Source: a virus (lineage: Duplodnaviria > Heunggongvirae > Uroviricota > Caudoviricetes). Taken from it: a stretch of DNA of 64,000 nt. Of the stretch, positions 12,858 through 64,000 are shown in pieces. The notes under the pieces are model-generated. The model ran no database searches. It was not told the origin of the DNA and saw only the letters and a list, made by a program, of their open reading frames with translations. The stretch spans positions 1 through 64,000 of IMG/VR virus record IMGVR_UViG_3300045049_000056; one strand, 5' to 3'. Position 1 is the first letter of the stretch. Each line of letters opens with the position of its first letter. Made by a program: the position numbers and the translations under genes.

Positions 12858-14582
12858 ATGGCAGAATTCGTCATTGGGAAAAATGCGTGCCCTTTTACAG
12901 GGTGCGGTTCCAGCGATGGCTTCCATTGGTACGGCGAAGGGAATGGGGGCTATTGCTACAGTTGTAACAAGAGCATTCTTTCCGATGAGCGTAAGGCAGA
13001 ATTAGGATTGGATGCTGAAGATGATTATGAGGAGGAAGTTGTGACTAGGGAGAAAATCACTCCAGAGGAAAACGAGCGCATCAAGGCCCGCACTGGCACT
13101 GATGGCAAGGGATATCGTGGTATCACTAAGGAGATTAACACTTTCTTTGGTGTACGTTATGAGTATGACGAAGCTACCGGCGAGCCAATTAAGCAATACG
13201 TGCCGACTACGATTAATGGGGAACTGTGTGGTTATCGCACACGCAAGTTTCCTAAAGACTTTTCGCACCCGATTGGTCAAGTTGGTAAAGAGTGTGATAT
13301 GGTGTTTCAGTTCCGCTTTAAGACGCACACCAAGACTTGTATTATCAGCGGTGGCGAGACTAAGGCTCTTAACACTTACCGCATGTTGTACGAGCATCAG
13401 GTTGCCCGTGGTAAGACGGATTACGAGACAGTAGCGGTTGTGTGCTCCACGTTGGGAGAAAGCGGGGCGCACAAACAAGTGCAGGCGCAATACGCATTTT
13501 TTGAGCAGTTCGACCGGGTTCTGGTTTGCATGGACCAAGATGAAGCGGGCATCAAAGCAACTGAAGAGATAGTTAAGGTTCTTCCCAAGGGTAAAGCTTG
13601 GGTTCTTAAGATGCGTTATAAAGACGCTGATGAATATGTTGAAAAGGGTAAGCAACAAGAATTCATCAACGACTACTACGCGGCTAAGAAGTATGTTCCA
13701 CACGGTGTGACAGCAAGTACGGATATTAGTGAGAAGATGCGAGAGTTCTTGATGAAGCCTCGCCTATCTTTCCCGCCTTATCTCCACAAACTCCAAAAGA
13801 AGCTGCGGGGAGGTTTGCCGGTTTGCATTTTCAATATTCTTAGTGCTTCAGGTACAGGCAAAAGTACCCACGTCGATGCTATGACACTGCATTGGATCAT
13901 GAACGAGAATAAGCTTGTAGGCATCGTTCCCATGGAAACTTGCGAAGGCGAGTACGGTGTAAACCTCTTATCTTCGTATGCTGAAGTTAAGATGAATCTT
14001 TTCGAGACAGTAGATGAGCGCTTGGCATTTATTGACAGGGAAGATACGAAAGCCTTGGAACGCGAACTCTTCTACAAGGAAGACGGCAACCCACGTTTCT
14101 ACATTCTTGATGCGGAGGCTGAAACTTTAAAGGATCGCGTCGAGTACCTTATCGTCAGCCTTGAGTGTAAGATTATTATCATTGATCCTATTCAAGACGT
14201 GTTCGACATGCTAGGTGAAGATGAACAAGCTAAGTTCATGGGATGGATGAAAGGTTGGATGAAGAAGGGCATTACCTTTGTCAACGTTAACCATTCCCGT
14301 AAGTCGGGACAAGGGCAGAAAGCTAACAGTAAAGGTGCAGACCTGTCAGAAGAGGATATGATGGGCCACAGCAGTATCTTCAAGAGTGGTGGCGTAAATC
14401 TAATTCTTATGCGAAACAAAGAAGCGGAAGATGAGGTTGAGAAGAATACCACGTTTATGAAGCTTACGAAGGCACGAGGAGTAGGTGACACAGGTATTGT
14501 TGGAAAGTATTACTACGAGATGGAAAAGCACAAGATTCATGACCTTGATGACTGGCTTACCGCTAACCCTCAGCATTTCTAA
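12858..14582 (+). CDS. T7 gp4-like bifunctional primase-helicase
   Basis: N-terminal zinc-binding domain CPFTGCGSSDG...YCYSC. TOPRIM-like region ISGGETKALN...CMDQDEAGIKATEEIVKVLPKGKAWV. Walker A SASGTGKST. Confidence 0.9.
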   Translation: MAEFVIGKNACPFTGCGSSDGFHWYGEGNGGYCYSCNKSILSDERKAELGLDAEDDYEEEVVTREKITPEENERIKARTGTDGKGYRGITKEINTFFGVRYEYDEATGEPIKQYVPTTINGELCGYRTRKFPKDFSHPIGQVGKECDMVFQFRFKTHTKTCIISGGETKALNTYRMLYEHQVARGKTDYETVAVVCSTLGESGAHKQVQAQYAFFEQFDRVLVCMDQDEAGIKATEEIVKVLPKGKAWVLKMRYKDADEYVEKGKQQEFINDYYAAKKYVPHGVTASTDISEKMREFLMKPRLSFPPYLHKLQKKLRGGLPVCIFNILSASGTGKSTHVDAMTLHWIMNENKLVGIVPMETCEGEYGVNLLSSYAEVKMNLFETVDERLAFIDREDTKALERELFYKEDGNPRFYILDAEAETLKDRVEYLIVSLECKIIIIDPIQDVFDMLGEDEQAKFMGWMKGWMKKGITFVNVNHSRKSGQGQKANSKGADLSEEDMMGHSSIFKSGGVNLILMRNKEAEDEVEKNTTFMKLTKARGVGDTGIVGKYYYEMEKHKIHDLDDWLTANPQHF

Positions 14583-14636: not shown

Positions 14637-14828
14637 ATGAGTTTTGATTATCAGAATAGTACTCTTGAAGAGTTGGCAGAGTACATTGAAACCGCAACGC
14701 CTCAAGTTATTTCCACCATGATTCGCTACTACGCCAACAAGGGTAATGTGGATATGGAGAATAAGATTCGTACGGCCCGTAAGATTGTTGTAAAACGTCG
14801 AGCACTGGCCCGATTGGAGGATATGTAA
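14637..14828 (+). CDS. hypothetical protein (63 aa)
   Basis: AAGGAATAGTAAT then ATG. Confidence 0.5.
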   Translation: MSFDYQNSTLEELAEYIETATPQVISTMIRYYANKGNVDMENKIRTARKIVVKRRALARLEDM

Positions 14829-15445
14829 TGTCGGGTAAGAGTGCAGATAAATACGGGCAGGACTGGCATGCGAATTTCGTATATGACCCATCCAGCGCAA
14901 GCGGAATCGTTTGGAAGGTTGATAAATTTCGCGGCAACAGTAAATCGCCATACGTTTTTAGAAAAGCTGGAGAACAGGCCGGGAACTTATCAAAGACAGG
15001 GTACTGGACGGTTTCTTTGTATCACGGCAATGGAAGGTCATTACCGTATCAGGTGCACAGAATCATCTACGAAATGCATCATGGACCTATTACAGATAAC
15101 ACGTTAGTAATTGACCACATTGACGGGTGCAAAACTAATAACTGCATTGAAAATTTAAGGCTGGTGAAGCGTAGTGATAATACTCGTAACACAGTCAAGT
15201 ATTCTAACAACTCTACAGGTGTTGTCGGAGTGTATCTGGATGGTAAGAGTGACAAGAACGGCAATGTGTATTGGTACTATAAGGCGGCTTGCATGAATTT
15301 AGATGGTGGTCAGTCAACTAAAGCGTTCTCTATCAATAAATACGGCGAACAGGAAGCCTTCCGTCTAGCCTGCGAATACCGCGCCAAGATGATTGCAGAG
15401 CTAAACGAACAAGGTGCGGGCTACACTGAACGCCACGGCACCTAA
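14828..15445 (+). CDS. free-standing HNH (HNH_3) + AP2-domain homing endonuclease
   Basis: VIDHIDGCKTNNCIENLRLVKRSDNTRN is an HNH_3 signature. STGVVGVYLD...YWYYKA...FRLACEYRAKMIAEL is an AP2-like DNA-binding domain. Confidence 0.8.
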   Translation: MSGKSADKYGQDWHANFVYDPSSASGIVWKVDKFRGNSKSPYVFRKAGEQAGNLSKTGYWTVSLYHGNGRSLPYQVHRIIYEMHHGPITDNTLVIDHIDGCKTNNCIENLRLVKRSDNTRNTVKYSNNSTGVVGVYLDGKSDKNGNVYWYYKAACMNLDGGQSTKAFSINKYGEQEAFRLACEYRAKMIAELNEQGAGYTERHGT

Positions 15446-58685: not shown

Positions 58686-59207
58686 TTATTTAGCGTTTTT
58701 AGGCGCGTACTCTGCTTCAAGTTTGGCTGCAAGGCGCGTAACCATGTCAGCTTCAGCAGGCGTCTCAACAACCGCATCAACACCCTGCTCAACGAACTGT
58801 TCCGACTTCGCTTCCGTAGCCATGTTAGCCGACAGAGTGCCAACCATTGCCTCAAAAACTTTATCGTCCAGCCCTTCAAATGCTGTCAGCAATTCGACAG
58901 CTTTTGCATCGCCAACGACTTCTTGCAGCTTCGTCAGACGCGCATTCGTTTTTTCTTTAGCAGCCTCAGCAACTGCATCAGCTTTTTCTTTTTCTACAGC
59001 AGCCAGAGCAGCTTCAGCAGCTTGCAGCTTTTCAGTTGTTTGTGCCAGCGTTTCCGAAACCTGAGCAAAGCTCGACTTCAGTTCAGCCAGTTCAGCAGCG
59101 ATTGCCTCAACATTCGGCACTTCGGCCTGATTTGCTTCTACGATTTCGGTTGTCATTTCGACGCTAACCCCTTCTTGTTTAAAAAATTTCTGTAGGCTTT
59201 TCAGCAT
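58686..59207 (-). CDS. scaffolding protein (173 aa)
   Basis: Ala/Glu/Lys-rich coiled coil between the protease and capsid genes. Confidence 0.65.
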   Translation of the reverse strand: MLKSLQKFFKQEGVSVEMTTEIVEANQAEVPNVEAIAAELAELKSSFAQVSETLAQTTEKLQAAEAALAAVEKEKADAVAEAAKEKTNARLTKLQEVVGDAKAVELLTAFEGLDDKVFEAMVGTLSANMATEAKSEQFVEQGVDAVVETPAEADMVTRLAAKLEAEYAPKNAK

Positions 59208-60049
59208 TACTTTGCTCCTTTAGTCTGTTCGGCAAGATAAGCCGAGAACTGATTGTGATCCATTACTTTATTAACCAACCCTGCCTCCAAAGCAGCTTCC
59301 GCATGAAACATCTTCGCATCCATTGCGAGAATTGTGTCCACGTCAATTCCCGTGTAATTGCTGACATGTTGGGCGAATTGATTTCCTAGCCGAGTGACTT
59401 CATCTTGAATTTCAGCCAAGAACTCTTTAGAGAAACTGCCATCTTCTGCGAAAGGCGTCTTGCCCGGTGTGCTGGAGATATAAATTGGTTTTAGGCCAGC
59501 TTGTTCAAATGCTTTAGAACGGTCCAAAAGTGCCACCACGCAGCCAACACTCCCTGTGCTCGCGTCAGGATGAATAACCACTTCATCGGCAGCCACGTTA
59601 AGGGCAAGAGACGCGGACGCAGAGATTGTGTCGATATACGCGTACCATTTGACACCGGCTTGGTCGCACATTGCACGAAGATCGTTTGCAGTGGAAAAGC
59701 AATGCGATGCTTGACCACCGGGACTCGAATGCATAGTGATGAGTGTCGTGATACCATCATCGATAAGCGCTTGCGCTTGAGCTAGAATACCTTCATAGCT
59801 GCAACCACTAACCTCTCCACACGCACCAACAACGGGACGATAAGTGAGCGCCCCATCAATATCAATCTGACCAATTTTGTCAAGACGTTGAGGTGCAGGT
59901 TGATCTGCTTTTTGAGCGTCTACTTTGACAGAGAAGCTTGCGGAATTACGATAGTTGATATATTCGAGGATAGCGGTAGCTGCCTCTGCTTGGATTAAAT
60001 GCGGGACGTTATACAAACTCTCCGCGAATCTAAAAAGGCTATGTGCCAT
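59207..60049 (-). CDS. prohead protease (S49/ClpP-like, lambda gpC-like)
   Basis: ITMHSSPGGQ and the wider architecture are typical of S49/SppA-type prohead proteases. Lies after the portal. Confidence 0.7.
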   Translation of the reverse strand: MAHSLFRFAESLYNVPHLIQAEAATAILEYINYRNSASFSVKVDAQKADQPAPQRLDKIGQIDIDGALTYRPVVGACGEVSGCSYEGILAQAQALIDDGITTLITMHSSPGGQASHCFSTANDLRAMCDQAGVKWYAYIDTISASASLALNVAADEVVIHPDASTGSVGCVVALLDRSKAFEQAGLKPIYISSTPGKTPFAEDGSFSKEFLAEIQDEVTRLGNQFAQHVSNYTGIDVDTILAMDAKMFHAEAALEAGLVNKVMDHNQFSAYLAEQTKGAK

Positions 60050-60051
60050 CT

Positions 60052-61545
60052 CTATCCTTTATTGTCGTTGTTGTTTGCCGACCTATCTTGGCCACTCGAC
60101 TTACCACCAATCTTTGAAGTGCCATCACCAGTGGTTCCGGGAGCCATACCTTCACCAGAATTAGAAGTATTCGTCGTCAAAGCTTTTTCATCAACAGGTT
60201 CATCATCAGGACGTGGGCGAGCGCCTGCGGCTTTACGAACGATATTCATAATCTCGCGATCACGTTCAATCAGACCTGTCGAAGCTGTACGCTGCAAGAA
60301 TTTCGACAATTCCTCAAGCGAAACAGAACTAATATCAGACGGAACAAATTTCGGCATCACCTCGTCAGTCCAGCCGTTTAGCTTATAAATCGAAGGAATC
60401 AAGTCGCTGTTAAGTACGCTTGCAATCTCATTCAACCTGTGGCTCATCGCAAGAGCTAGCACGTTCGTATCGCCATCGCTAAGGGAAAAACTGCCGGGAT
60501 TTGTACCTGCTTTGAGGATATCCACTGCAAGAGCAGAAAGAATCTCATCTTGATAGCGTCGAATAACTGTGTCGATGTTAGCCCCGTTCATACCTTTCTT
60601 TTCCATAAGAGAGATATCGAACATATCTTTCTTAGATTCAGGATCAATGAACGTAGGAAAAACGATGCAATCCGCAGTGCCATTCTTGATATTCGTGCCA
60701 ATTTGTTTGGCAGACTCATATACAGCTTTTTGTCCGTCGTCAGCATCTTCCGACATGAACGCAGCAGGGATACGAATCAAGGGGATGCCTGTAGCCTCCT
60801 TAGCAATGCCAAGAATTTCCGTGTCCTTTAGCATTGACATCTGCTTCCAACTGAGATACACCCCCTTCAAGATAGAATGCCCCATCGGGTTTCCACGGGT
60901 AGCATCAGCAGAGAACAGCAAGAATTTTTCACGAGGGATGCGAATCAAACCGTTCTTATCCGCCGCTGAGAGGTATAGATAGCTGTTTTGTAGACTGGAG
61001 ATACCTTGGTAGACAGCAAGCAAATCGCGCCCATCTTCAGAAAACTCCCAACGAGCGATAGACTCTTGAGGGCGTGGTGCAATTTTCTTCAAGCCAATGA
61101 TGCCGTCGTTGTAGCGCGAGCCATTCTTACGAAGCCTGCGGCGGAAGACTTTTTCCTGCACACTGTAGCCGTAAGGAAGATATTCGATAACATCAGCAAT
61201 GAAATCGTCCCATGTGTTTTCCATATCGGTCATCATAGACTCGATAATCTTAGCTCGTTGGGTTTCTTGGTCAGACGCTCCTACAGGGGCTTCCACATGC
61301 CATTTGACACGAGACAGCAGCATTTTGTAGGCGTTTAATGCGGATGCAATGATTGCCGTGTTCCGCATCTCGTTGATAGTGCGGAAGAATCTTGGAAATT
61401 GGAATGCGGGATTTAGCTCCTCGTAGATGTGCCCATTAGACACTCGCAAGGCTGTAAACCCGACTTCTCCGAGGCTTACGCGGGGAATTACCGCACCATC
61501 ATCGGCAGCAAGAGCCGACTTATTTTCAGGCTTCTTTTTTGCCAT
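60052..61545 (-). CDS. portal protein (497 aa)
   Basis: Lies between the terminase and protease genes. Size is typical for a lambda-B-type portal. Confidence 0.75.
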   Translation of the reverse strand: MAKKKPENKSALAADDGAVIPRVSLGEVGFTALRVSNGHIYEELNPAFQFPRFFRTINEMRNTAIIASALNAYKMLLSRVKWHVEAPVGASDQETQRAKIIESMMTDMENTWDDFIADVIEYLPYGYSVQEKVFRRRLRKNGSRYNDGIIGLKKIAPRPQESIARWEFSEDGRDLLAVYQGISSLQNSYLYLSAADKNGLIRIPREKFLLFSADATRGNPMGHSILKGVYLSWKQMSMLKDTEILGIAKEATGIPLIRIPAAFMSEDADDGQKAVYESAKQIGTNIKNGTADCIVFPTFIDPESKKDMFDISLMEKKGMNGANIDTVIRRYQDEILSALAVDILKAGTNPGSFSLSDGDTNVLALAMSHRLNEIASVLNSDLIPSIYKLNGWTDEVMPKFVPSDISSVSLEELSKFLQRTASTGLIERDREIMNIVRKAAGARPRPDDEPVDEKALTTNTSNSGEGMAPGTTGDGTSKIGGKSSGQDRSANNNDNKG

Positions 61546-61629: not shown

Positions 61630-62991
61630 TTATACTGTGGGGATTGGGGAAGGTTTAGAAGTGACGGGGATGGAGAAGGACGGAAGGGTGTTATTTTTCA
61701 TAACTGCTTTCGCTGCTGTTCCGGTTGCATCGAACATGTCGTCCTTTTGATTCCTATTACCGTCAATGTAGTCTTCTAGCTCGTTGAACCACATTTCGTT
61801 CCAATCACCTTTAACCACTCGTACCCATCCAGCTTCCGCGAGGGAAAGGAAAGGTTGCATCCTTGCCAACTTACCTGTGTGGCCACTGACCGTCTCAGAG
61901 CGAACATCAACACCCTTCTCAACTAAAGTTTTTACGAAGAATGCTGCGGCCTGCGCCCCAGAAGCGCCGGGGTCTTTAGGGATTGTCACTGGAACTTTTG
62001 TTCCAAATTCGTACAAATCCTTTTTAGAGCACTCTGCAATAGCTTCTAGAACCCCGTGCGTTAGCTGACGGTATCGCTCTACGTGCTCAACATAATAGAA
62101 ACCATCCACACCTTTAGATATGCGAACAGAAGCGGTCCAGTCAGGATTAGGGTTGCTTTCAGACTTAAGAGTGCTTGCCAAGTCCATGCCACGATGTCTG
62201 GAATGTACTCGTGCAGGGACAGCATCAACAATCTCACACCAGTCACGCTTGAAGTAGCCCGAAGACTCTTCTTTAGCAAACCAAGAGCCAAGCAACAGAC
62301 GTTCACGCTCAACACGTTTAAGGTTCTCAAGACGAGCAACGTAGCCCGGATTGAGCACTTTCATGCGGGGATTGTCCTTGATCGTTGCACTGATAAAGGT
62401 GTAGGATTGAGGACGTACGCCGGGGTATTGTTCGATGAGTTCTTCTTTGGTGTCAGCAAACACCATCGTGCCGTTGTAGGAAGCGTAATAACGCTCAACG
62501 CCAGAGCGTTCAGGGATTGGAATGCCTGTTTCTTGATCCAGATACCAACTCACAAAAGGCATCAAGTGGCTGTCACGACGTGGGTTACAGGTTGCAATCA
62601 GTTGATGCGGACCTTTTGCCTGAGAACGAATACGAGATTCAAGATATCGAATCTGGATGTCTGTGTGGTTCTGTGCTTCGTCAAATACAACAAGGGAGAA
62701 CTGACCACCATCATAGTTGGTGATGTCACGGTCTGCACCACAAACCTTAAACTGCACTTGCGCGCCGCTTGGGAACGTGGCAGTCATCTGAGGGTGCGTT
62801 TTAAACTGCGCACCAAACTGACGCCACATCTTCTCGGCTTCTTGGTAAAGACCGCCTGCTTGAGATAGCTGCGTGGAAGTTTCGCGGATAAACACCGCAC
62901 GGAAATTTGGATCGTCCTTGTACTTAAGGACTTTGAGTAATGCCTGATGGCTCTTACCGCATCCCGCTCCCTTTGTGTTCGGACAATCTCG
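61630..62991 (-). CDS. terminase large subunit, 3' exon (5' exon beyond window end)
   Basis: The track ORF (GTG 62895) continues open upstream through Walker A NTKGAGCGKS to an in-frame UAG at 62992-62994 only 7 codons before it. No start codon lies between. Walker B LVVFDEAQ. A nuclease domain is present. Confidence 0.75.
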   Translation of the reverse strand, partial: RDCPNTKGAGCGKSHQALLKVLKYKDDPNFRAVFIRETSTQLSQAGGLYQEAEKMWRQFGAQFKTHPQMTATFPSGAQVQFKVCGADRDITNYDGGQFSLVVFDEAQNHTDIQIRYLESRIRSQAKGPHQLIATCNPRRDSHLMPFVSWYLDQETGIPIPERSGVERYYASYNGTMVFADTKEELIEQYPGVRPQSYTFISATIKDNPRMKVLNPGYVARLENLKRVERERLLLGSWFAKEESSGYFKRDWCEIVDAVPARVHSRHRGMDLASTLKSESNPNPDWTASVRISKGVDGFYYVEHVERYRQLTHGVLEAIAECSKKDLYEFGTKVPVTIPKDPGASGAQAAAFFVKTLVEKGVDVRSETVSGHTGKLARMQPFLSLAEAGWVRVVKGDWNEMWFNELEDYIDGNRNQKDDMFDATGTAAKAVMKNNTLPSFSIPVTSKPSPIPTV

Positions 62992-64000
62992 CTAGTTATT
63001 GTCCCGCTTATCGCAGCACTACATCGCTGTAGTGTTCAGACTATATCTTCATCCTTTCGGAGTCTCCCGTTTCGGATCGCTTGATCCTACGCTTCTCAGC
63101 TAGTCGTTGCACCTTCCCACATGGGCTTGGCTCAGGATTGTCTCAGTGAGAGTTCCCCTGAATTAGAGAGATTTTTATCGGAGGCAGAGTTGTTTACCAC
63201 CGAAGATCACATAATCGCTTGTGCAATCTAGAAACCGCTTGTGTGTCGGGCTGTCAGGCCCGAGCACCACTTTATTTTTCTTAGTCATTTACTCCTCTAT
63301 CATGTTATCGGCAATACCGTGGTGTTCTCCGTATTCAACTCCCAACCTCTTTAACTCTTCAAGTTTGCTATTTCTCCACTCTTGAGCAAGGGCGGTTGCC
63401 TCTTCTAAGCTTCTCGTACCGAAGCCCCACGATTTACTAATCCGCTTCTTACTGATAGGGTCATTGTATCTGGCGATTACCCTGTTACCCTTGCTTTTGT
63501 CGTACCTAACAATAATACCATTGATACCTGATGTATTATTCTTCTGCAAGGAATGATTTCGTGCCTGTTGTTCATCAGTTTCCCAACGAATATTGCCCGG
63601 CTTATAACCTTCTTTATTATCAATTCTTCCCACAGACCATTTTCCAGTGGGTTTGGGGCCAATCTCGTTATAGAATGCGAGAAAATCGTCCTCAAACTCT
63701 TTGCAAACTGTAATGCCACGGCTCGTGTAATGTTCGTAATCGGGATGATTTGGATTAGTGCAACGAGAAAGCATATTTGCGTAGTGGCGATATTCAACTG
63801 ACCCACTCATACCGTGCGTTGTAAATTTCTTAGACATCTCTTCGTTCTTTAAACACCCGCACGAACGATGTTTTCCAGACCTCAAATCATACGATCTAGA
63901 CTCTGTAGTATTTCCACAGGAACACTGACAAACCCACAACACTACATTTTTATAATTTTTGTAGTGTGAAGTTGCGGTAAGTCGTCCAAAAGTCACACCC
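62992..64000 (-). mobile_element. group I self-splicing intron (3' part) in the terminase gene, carrying an HNH homing endonuclease ORF
   Basis: Minus RNA carries R-like UGCAACGACUAG (63111-63101) and S-like AAGAUAUAGUCUG (63049-63039) core elements, candidate P/Q-like segments, a P9-like hairpin CACUAC-AGCGAU-GUAGUG, and a terminal G (of UAG) at the exon junction. Confidence 0.65.
63289..63996 (-). CDS. intron-encoded HNH (HNH_3) + AP2-domain homing endonuclease (N-terminus may extend past window)
   Basis: GKWSVGRIDNKEGYKPGNIRWETDEQQARN is an HNH_3 signature. N-terminal Cys cluster CQCSCG...CGC. GINGIIVRYDKSKGNRVIARYN is AP2-like. The track start is GTG at the window edge. Confidence 0.75.
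   Translation of the reverse strand: MTFGRLTATSHYKNYKNVVLWVCQCSCGNTTESRSYDLRSGKHRSCGCLKNEEMSKKFTTHGMSGSVEYRHYANMLSRCTNPNHPDYEHYTSRGITVCKEFEDDFLAFYNEIGPKPTGKWSVGRIDNKEGYKPGNIRWETDEQQARNHSLQKNNTSGINGIIVRYDKSKGNRVIARYNDPISKKRISKSWGFGTRSLEEATALAQEWRNSKLEELKRLGVEYGEHHGIADNMIEE

Follow-up and report, generated by a model that had tools for sequence, protein, structure and literature searches.

A short group I intron interrupts the Walker A motif of a phage terminase gene behind a free-standing endonuclease-like gene

The gene for the large terminase subunit (terL) of the caudoviricete virus recorded as IMGVR_UViG_3300045049_000056 raises the question of where its ATP-binding N-terminus comes from. 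The window analysed here is the whole stretch of 64,000 nucleotides (nt), positions 1 to 64,000 of that record, and terL lies on its minus strand. The annotated terL starts at a GTG codon at 62895. As the initial annotation had described, the frame stays open upstream of this GTG, through the Walker A motif GAGCGKS, to an in-frame TAG 7 codons upstream (NN*RDCPNTKGAGCGKS). Past the TAG the frame continues with RDCPNTK-GAGCGKSHQALL..., and none of ATG, GTG and TTG is read in frame between the TAG and the GTG at 62895, which is the first in-frame start. To explain the missing N-terminus, the same annotation proposed a group I intron with an HNH-AP2 homing endonuclease gene inside it and a 5' exon outside the window. 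We find that this observation was largely correct and that its anatomy needs correction: the intron contains no open reading frame (ORF), the window includes both exons of terL, and the gene resembling an endonuclease stands free upstream. The order on the minus strand is HEG1 (the endonuclease-like gene), terL exon 1, intron and terL exon 2 (Table 1). It is highly probable, as judged from the sequence, that splicing of this IA-type intron restores the TerL protein.

Exon 1 was located at 63288..63196, and it matches the N-termini of intact terminases. The stop codon of HEG1 (TAA) occupies 63291..63289, the terL ATG begins at the next base, 63288, and a Shine-Dalgarno-like sequence, GAGGAG, is found immediately 5' of this ATG. 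Exon 1 starts with ATG ACT AAG..., and its product aligns with intact terminases from residue 1-3. The unspliced frame soon meets stop codons past exon 1. The intron separates two Gly codons of the Walker A coding sequence (GGU GGU | GGA GCG), and the corresponding peptide is ...DYVIFGG|GAGCGKS....

When GGT GGT, with its last base at 63196, is joined to GGA GCG, with its first base at 62970, a protein of 477 amino acids (aa) with an intact Walker A motif results. The spliced product matches Terminase_6N with 82.3 bits, the profile being matched from its position 1 at residue 28 of the product, and Terminase_6C with 50.4 bits. The E value against phrog_979 is 1.5e-154. Metagenomic homologs without an interruption match 100% of the product length with 87-88% identity, and the junction peptide FLDCTSDYVIFGG|GAGCGKS is the same in three of them (P0001, P0002 and P0004). 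A single-piece tblastn alignment runs across the junction to the intact terminases of Pseudomonas PAK_P5-like phages with 42% identity. The alignment of the conceptually spliced protein, which the initial annotation had proposed as a check, thus spans the junction. These results indicate that the joined exons restore a terminase with the junction of intact homologs. The active packaging ATPase would be made only from the spliced mRNA.

According to the covariance-model search of the minus strand, a second proposed check, the intron matches Rfam RF00028 (Intron_gpI) with 85.7 bits, above the gathering score of 50. The E value is 4.9e-22 for a search of 1.5 kb and 2.1e-20 for the whole window, in whose 64 kb no other Rfam match occurs. 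The match spans 63234..63017 and covers model positions 1-253 completely, and the HEG1 ORF is not included in it. Each of the elements that the initial annotation had named was located: R, S, the P9-like hairpin and the terminal G, which is at 62971. An explicit P1-P10 structure was written on the alignment of five distinct homologous intron copies, and 64 pairs in 14 helices were scored (P1 with its U.G pair, P10, the P3/P7 pseudoknot, P4-P6, P7.1, P7.2, P8, P9, P9.1 and P9.2). The paired cells amount to 96.2%, versus 34-46% when the partners are slid by 1-3 columns, and 0 of 500 shuffles reach the observed values. In these copies 13 pairs show compensatory changes on both sides. The covariation is located in P6, P7.1, P7.2, P9 (3 pairs), P9.2 (4 pairs) and P10; P3, P4, P7 and P8 are invariant. 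The minimum free energy fold recovers P1, P4-P6, P7.1, P7.2, P9, P9.1 and P9.2, and every copy of the terL intron found in viral contigs has the same 38-nt core stretch. The longest ORF inside the intron on its own strand has 23 aa, and the listed 37-aa ORF at 63175..63288 is exon 1 read on into the intron. The Rfam match and the spliced alignment together uphold the central claim of the initial annotation, that terL is split at Walker A by a group I intron and that splicing is needed for the ATPase. The intron is a genuine group I intron. No sequence or structure feature of a self-splicing ribozyme is missing from it, and we infer with high confidence that it self-splices.

In the case of the 3' splice site, G62971 (the omega-G) is kept in all six distinct copies, and P10 changes together with the third base of exon 2, three states being observed: GGAG/CUCU (window and L016), GGCG/GCU (L015 and L018) and GGGG/CCCU (L041). 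Thus, the 3' splice site is pinned by the covariation of P10. In the case of the 5' splice site, exon 1 ends with GGU GGU, of which the final U supplies the U.G pair of P1. P1 with this pair is present and invariant in all copies, and it was also found independently by the minimum free energy fold. GGTGGT is present at the insertion site in all intron-bearing alleles, and synonymous variation occurs there in the intron-less alleles. Two points limit the support for the 5' site proposed here. As the helix is invariant in all copies, P1 shows no covariation, which is thus neutral on the 5' site, and the Rfam alignment places P1 on a different hairpin within exon 1 (AGAUUGCA/UGUGAUCU). The junction implied by the latter, ...FLD|YCPNTKGAGCGKS, would delete four residues conserved in all intact homologs, and it was rejected; this hairpin is also not kept in L014. 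The RNA would self-splice by the two-step guanosine-initiated route, in which P1 (CGGUGGU/GCCUCCG, U63196.G) would set the 5' splice site, and omega-G 62971 together with P10 (GGAG/CUCU) would set the 3' splice site.

The intron has the extra helices P7.1 and P7.2, located between P7 and P3', which are characteristic of subgroup IA, and the core is 70-74% identical to the introns of T4 nrdD, SPbeta bnrdE, the phiNIT1 polymerase and Twort-like phages. The IA-type assignment is based on these two features. The finer subgroup is probably IA2. The window intron resembles the classical phage IA2-type introns (T4 nrdD/sunY, SPbeta bnrdE, phiNIT1 DNA polymerase and Twort-like) in nucleotide sequence over the P3-P8 core, in P7.1 and P7.2, and in its insertion into a conserved nucleotide-metabolism or packaging gene. 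It differs from them in its compact size of 225 nt, the lack of an internal ORF, the host gene and, by reading of the sequence, the lack of a P2 helix. The nearest database intron is located within the DNA polymerase gene of Vibrio phage S4-7. An exact 30-nt pattern of the intron gave no match in viral contigs. The 38-nt core pattern gave only the terL loci already known in viral contigs and nothing in metagenome contigs, so that no copy was found in another gene.

Table 1. Positions of the terL locus elements and of a second endonuclease gene in the window
Feature	Position	Strand	Basis or remark
HEG1, free-standing endonuclease-like gene (divergent HNH_3-like core and C-terminal AP2 domain)	63289..64000	-	Frame open to window edge
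terL exon 1 (ATG and 30 codons, MTKKNKVVLGPDSPTHKRFLDCTSDYVIFGG)	63196..63288	-	Translation; N-terminus alignment with intact terminases
Group I intron, IA-type, ORF-less, 225 nt	62971..63195	-	RF00028 match and homologous copies; omega-G end at 62971
terL exon 2 (446 codons and stop)	61630..62970	-	Translation; start GGA GCG GGA TGC GGT AAG AGC = GAGCGKS (Walker A)
Internal guide sequence CUCU-GCCUCCG	63179..63189	-	P1 and P10 pairing
P1, GCCUCCG with exon 1 end CGGUGGU	63185..63179 with 63202..63196	-	Terminal U63196.G pair
P10, CUCU with exon 2 start GGAG	63189..63186 with 62970..62967	-	Covariation
Catalytic core, 3' half	63039..63111	-	Rfam alignment and compensatory pairs in P7.1 and P7.2
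R element TGCAACGACTAG	63111..63100	-	P7 5' strand 63105..63101
P7.1, GCU-GAGA-AGC	63100..63091	-	Compensatory changes in homologs
P7.2, GGAUC-AAGC-GAUCC	63087..63074	-	Compensatory changes in homologs
P3'	63068..63063	-	Rfam alignment
P8, followed by J8/7	63061..63052	-	Rfam alignment
S element AAGATATAGTCTG	63049..63037	-	P7 3' strand 63043..63039
Peripheral 3' hairpins	62982..63034	-	P9 63034..63017, P9.1 63016..63004, P9.2 63003..62982
Second endonuclease gene, canonical HNH_3 (60.7 bits) and AP2-like	14828..15445	+	

The 235-aa ORF that the initial annotation had noticed upstream, reaching the window edge, is present at 63996..63289, and its frame is open for 236 codons to the edge. Full-length homologs of HEG1 (P0121 and P0122) have 247 aa and are 78-82% identical; thus, about 10 N-terminal codons lie beyond the window. 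The label HNH_3/AP2 given to this ORF holds as homology at the level of profile and structure, whereas the ORF itself has no Pfam match at E<=1 and does not reach the threshold of PF13392 (HNH_3). The NCBIfam search and the PDB sequence search gave nothing useful. In PHROGs, the ORF is labelled 'HNH endonuclease' (phrog_374, E 5e-53). Homologs at 38-42% identity pass the threshold of AP2 (PF00847), and none of them match HNH_3. A profile of 54 family sequences matches AP2 chains in the PDB (E 1e-4), and hhalign aligns it with the HNH_3 protein encoded at 14828..15445 of the window (99.6% probability, E 1e-23), with DHID opposite GRID. According to the alignment to this genuine HNH_3 protein and the AP2 matches, the HEG1 product is homologous to HNH_3-AP2 homing endonucleases at the profile and structure level only. 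The N-terminus of the family contains a CxC...CGC zinc-ribbon-like module. By description, HEG1 is a candidate member of the 'IPA-HNH' class of Vibrio phage ICP1 (gp59 and gp209; PMC10448857), which is likewise missed by Pfam HNH_3. Both have an N-terminal or central HNH_3-related region too divergent for Pfam and a C-terminal AP2 domain, and both are located beside essential phage genes including the terminase. As set against gp59 and gp209 by description, the HEG1 family differs from IPA-HNH and HNH-AP2 enzymes in an invariant Arg at the position of the catalytic His and in its N-terminal module.

Homologous introns of 224-230 nt were found at the identical site of terL in L014 (= L019 and L026), L015, L016 (= L017), L018 and L041 (= L042 and L043). 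The order of endonuclease gene, exon 1 and intron is also observed in L041, in which the HEG1 homolog has 247 aa and is 78% identical. The combination of an ORF-less intron and an adjacent free-standing endonuclease gene recurs in seven other distinct loci. Three unrelated endonuclease-like families occupy the position directly upstream of terL among the relatives: HEG1 (window, L012, L013, L014, L018 and L041), HEG2 (L002 and L010) and HEG3, which contains DUF4379 repeats and a MUG113/T5orf172 domain (L015, L016, L021 and L030). One and the same intron accompanies HEG1 in some loci and HEG3 in others. An endonuclease-like ORF abuts terL in all eight distinct intron-bearing loci and in four of the ten intron-less loci (Fisher one-sided p = 0.011, shared ancestry not corrected). 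The intron-less loci with no endonuclease gene upstream of terL are L003, L004, L005, L006, L008 and L025. The nucleotide identity of exon 1 is 78.7% among intron-bearing alleles versus 69.1% between intron-bearing and intron-less alleles, and the rest of terL shows no difference between the two comparisons. The excess of similarity in exon 1 is consistent with co-conversion, but is not proof of it. In the intron-less terL of L011 (12..1439), the 5' flank is identical over 42 nt, GGTGGT included, to that of the intron-bearing L018. Either this allele is a naive target, or it arose when the intron was lost precisely.

The initial annotation regarded introns in phage terminase genes as uncommon, which is not so in this clade. 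Roughly 640 contigs contain terL homologs. Of the 120 closest terL clusters, the N-terminus is complete in 48; 62 start just past the junction, and three are of intein length. These counts indicate that interruption at the Walker A site is common in this clade. The terL genes of this phage and of about half of its metagenomic relatives are mis-called: they are truncated at the N-terminus, with the ATP-binding loop absent or clipped, and the 31-codon exon 1 is left as an orphan by gene callers. The true product requires splicing. In L014, L015 and L018 the intron has the 3' end ...AUG|GG, and the truncated calls P0005, P0009 and P0010 begin with a spurious Met (MGAGCGKS...) supplied by the final three nucleotides of the intron.

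The layout of the window locus is already documented in Vibrio phage ICP1. Barth et al. (2023) used RNA-seq and RT-PCR to confirm that the ICP1 terL is spliced; they interpreted the locus as a case of collaborative homing and named endonuclease turnover as the alternative (PMC10448857). In ICP1 (MW794179), the putative homing endonuclease gene tcgB (gp130, a T5orf172 endonuclease gene) is followed by the split terL (gp129/gp128), which consists of a 33-codon exon 1 ending with ...FYGG, ~253 nt without an annotated ORF, and an exon 2 with AGGGKS. In both loci the endonuclease gene touches or overlaps the start of terL, exon 1 has ~31-33 codons, the intervening sequence is ~225-253 nt long and lacks an ORF, and exon 2 follows. 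By reading of the sequence, both insertions come after GGT GGT and before the P-loop (...FYGG|AGGGKS versus ...IFGG|GAGCGKS). The ICP1 terL belongs to the same gene family as that of the window, aligning from residue 33 with 34% identity. ICP1 is of a different phage lineage, however, and its ribozyme differs (P7 GAUCAU/AUGAUC versus GACUA/UAGUC in the window). The endonuclease of ICP1 is T5orf172, whereas that of the window is a divergent HNH-AP2; the relatives L015 and L016 pair the window-type intron with a T5orf172/MUG113-type gene. The window is a clear further example of this layout and not a new kind of system. It adds a well-resolved case, supported by covariation, to the few in which an ORF-less intron and a free-standing endonuclease share one conserved site, the others being ICP1 terL and cyanophage psbA.

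The Rheinheimera Barba phages have an interruption at the same point of terL. In Barba14S (L046, 2129..2540), the 'hypothetical protein' gp097 looks like a terL exon 1 (...EILVIGG), and exon 2 starts with AAGSGKS. The intervening RNAs of Barba14S and ICP1 (L045, 2143..2500) share P7-like GAUCAU/AUGAUC elements. The ICP1 and Barba interruptions gave no match to Rfam RF00028 at E<=0.01.

Collaborative (trans) homing was reportedly described for S-PM2 psbA and for T3/T7-like phages by Zeng, Bonocora & Shub in 2009 and by Bonocora & Shub in 2009. In the psbA/F-CphI and T3/T7-like systems the endonuclease is shown to cut the intron insertion site, whereas the cutting by the window enzyme is predicted only, and the canonical catalytic His is missing from this enzyme. 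Those systems also involve another target gene and another family of endonucleases. The concept, developed on the cyanophage S-PM2 psbA intron with F-CphI and on T3/T7-like phages, is reviewed in PMC3984707. Group I introns are also present in the terL genes of Bastillevirinae (e.g. SIOphi), and their splicing was validated in vitro and in vivo (PMC11878797). The latter introns are ~800 nt on average and often contain internal endonuclease genes (PMC11878797), whereas the window intron has 225 nt and contains none. The terL family is phrog_675 in Bastillevirinae and phrog_979 in the window.

As the ORF-less intron is adjacent to a free-standing endonuclease gene, a mobility mechanism different from that of a composite mobile intron is implied. 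We tentatively propose, at somewhat less than an even chance, that the HEG1 protein and the intron act as a collaborative homing pair, as was proposed for ICP1 terL and cyanophage psbA. In a co-infected cell, the HEG1 enzyme would cut an intron-less terL close to the conserved P-loop sequence. With the donor genome as the repair template, the intron would be copied along with exon 1 and the endonuclease gene, and the donor would be protected because the intron disrupts the target site. Several results weigh against such a pair. The residue at the HNH_3 catalytic-His position of HEG1 is Arg (R125), which is invariant in the 54 family sequences, and Foldseek gave no nuclease match for HEG1; the product may not be an active canonical HNH nuclease. 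Four loci are intron-less and yet endonuclease-positive (L010, L012, L013 and L030), and Barba14S is interrupted with no endonuclease gene upstream. The pairing is thus not obligatory. The statistic for the association of endonuclease and intron is small, and shared ancestry is left uncorrected in it. A comparison of the P-loop DNA between endonuclease-positive and endonuclease-negative intron-less alleles revealed no obvious diagnostic substitutions. A role of the endonuclease-intron pair in mobility or immunity is plausible, but the absence of the catalytic His and the loci that break the pairing weaken the case.

A somewhat lower probability is given to the view that the intron and the endonuclease-like gene are independent neighbours. 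The intron would then be a vertically inherited, immobile remnant, possibly after loss of an internal endonuclease gene, and the upstream gene would home alone (intronless homing) to the terL 5' region or to the intergenic DNA upstream. The two would be adjacent only because each favours the same conserved gene. The same alternative was proposed for ICP1 by Barth et al. (PMC10448857). It agrees with the occurrence of one intron with two unrelated endonuclease families and of one endonuclease family with and without the intron, with the interrupted terL of Barba14S, and with endonuclease-like genes at other places (NUMOD3 between the portal and protease genes in L003 and L041, and the HNH_3-AP2 gene at 14828..15445). 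However, the endonuclease gene is present in 8/8 intron-bearing versus 4/10 intron-less loci, and the similarity excess is limited to exon 1, which lies between the endonuclease gene and the intron. In addition, at least two intron positions 10 nt apart, a probable third one and an intein within ~20 nt point to repeated recent invasion and not to a single old remnant. The natural combinations in this clade, namely the intron with two unrelated endonuclease families, the endonuclease without the intron, and neither, could be used to test spread with neighbouring endonucleases against protection from them.

The insertions near Walker A are as follows. Within ~20 nt of the motif there are at least two distinct intron insertion points (the window type and the L002 type), a probable third (L021) and an intein (L020). 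L002 (5512..5872) is the closest terL relative, with an exon 2 ~92-93% identical, and contains a different group I intron (Rfam, 97.7 bits). This intron is inserted 10 nt downstream of the window site, inside the Walker A Cys codon (GGC T|GC), and a 314-aa HEG2 ORF containing AP2 precedes it. In L021 (5001..5360), an interruption of ~260 nt is located ~7 nt downstream of the window site, and its core resembles the L002 intron. The L021 interruption has no Rfam match at the gathering score, and no canonical in-frame U and omega-G boundaries were placed; it is a probable third intron type. In L020 (185..2296), terL has an in-frame insertion of ~220 aa after GAGCGK, which starts with ALKHGEKV... 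and ends with ...VVTHN|T. This P-loop insertion looks like an intein. LAGLIDADG/Hom_end Pfam domains are present in P0050 and P0106 (756-777 aa). The Walker A stretch of terL in this uncultured phage clade may be an unusually dense battleground of selfish elements. On a further reading, which we consider rather unlikely, the intron would serve mainly as an immunity device against free-standing enzymes, and the His-to-Arg HNH-AP2 protein would be either a nuclease with non-canonical chemistry or a co-opted DNA binder that does not cut.

It is improbable that the HEG1 protein is a packaging cofactor of the terminase, like the HK97 gp74-type HNH protein in cos cleavage. HK97-type HNH genes (discussed in PMC10448857) occupy the place directly upstream of terL, as HEG1 does. 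The gene is absent, however, in 6/10 intron-less relatives with terL 85-88% identical, and two unrelated families, among them one of T5orf172/MUG113 type, take its place in other relatives; such a patchy distribution is the pattern of a mobile gene. The AP2 DNA-binding domain and the zinc-ribbon-like N-terminus are typical of homing-type enzymes, and the catalytic His is lacking.

A dead intron in a terL pseudogene of a defective or misassembled genome is very improbable. The assignment of P1 to another hairpin by Rfam could be taken in its favour. Both exons are intact, however, and the protein is under constraint (87-88% amino-acid versus ~70-80% nucleotide identity to relatives). The ribozyme helices are kept by compensatory changes across six distinct genomes, and about half of the terL gene calls of the clade are interrupted alike, which is incompatible with the loss of an essential gene. 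The composite mobile intron of the initial annotation, with the HNH-AP2 gene in a loop and the terL 5' exon past 64000, is the least credible explanation: although phage group I introns frequently carry internal HNH or GIY-YIG genes (PMC3984707) and the endonuclease-like ORF is on the same strand near the ribozyme core, it is practically excluded because this ORF stops at 63291..63289, before terL begins, the intron has only 225 nt and no ORF, an ATG-started exon of 31 codons matching intact terminase N-termini lies between the ORF stop and the intron, the full RF00028 model fits 63234..63017 without the ORF, and the same gene order is found in six other distinct loci and in ICP1.

A megablast search of the region against sequenced phages gave no match. 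No tRNA genes were found within the 64-kb window. In the relatives L002, L003 and L041, tRNA genes are located 2-3 kb upstream of terL, and by synteny the equivalent region would lie beyond 64000. The portal gene (60052..61545) and the protease gene (59207..60049) directly adjoin each other in the window, whereas a NUMOD3-containing ORF of ~250 aa lies between the portal and S49 protease genes in L003 (8985..9731) and L041 (7978..8739). By this comparison, the gap between portal and protease is another variable endonuclease slot of the packaging module. The second endonuclease gene of the window is directly 3' of a 574-aa primase/helicase-like ORF (12858..14582), and it is probably another free-standing homing endonuclease beside a replication gene.

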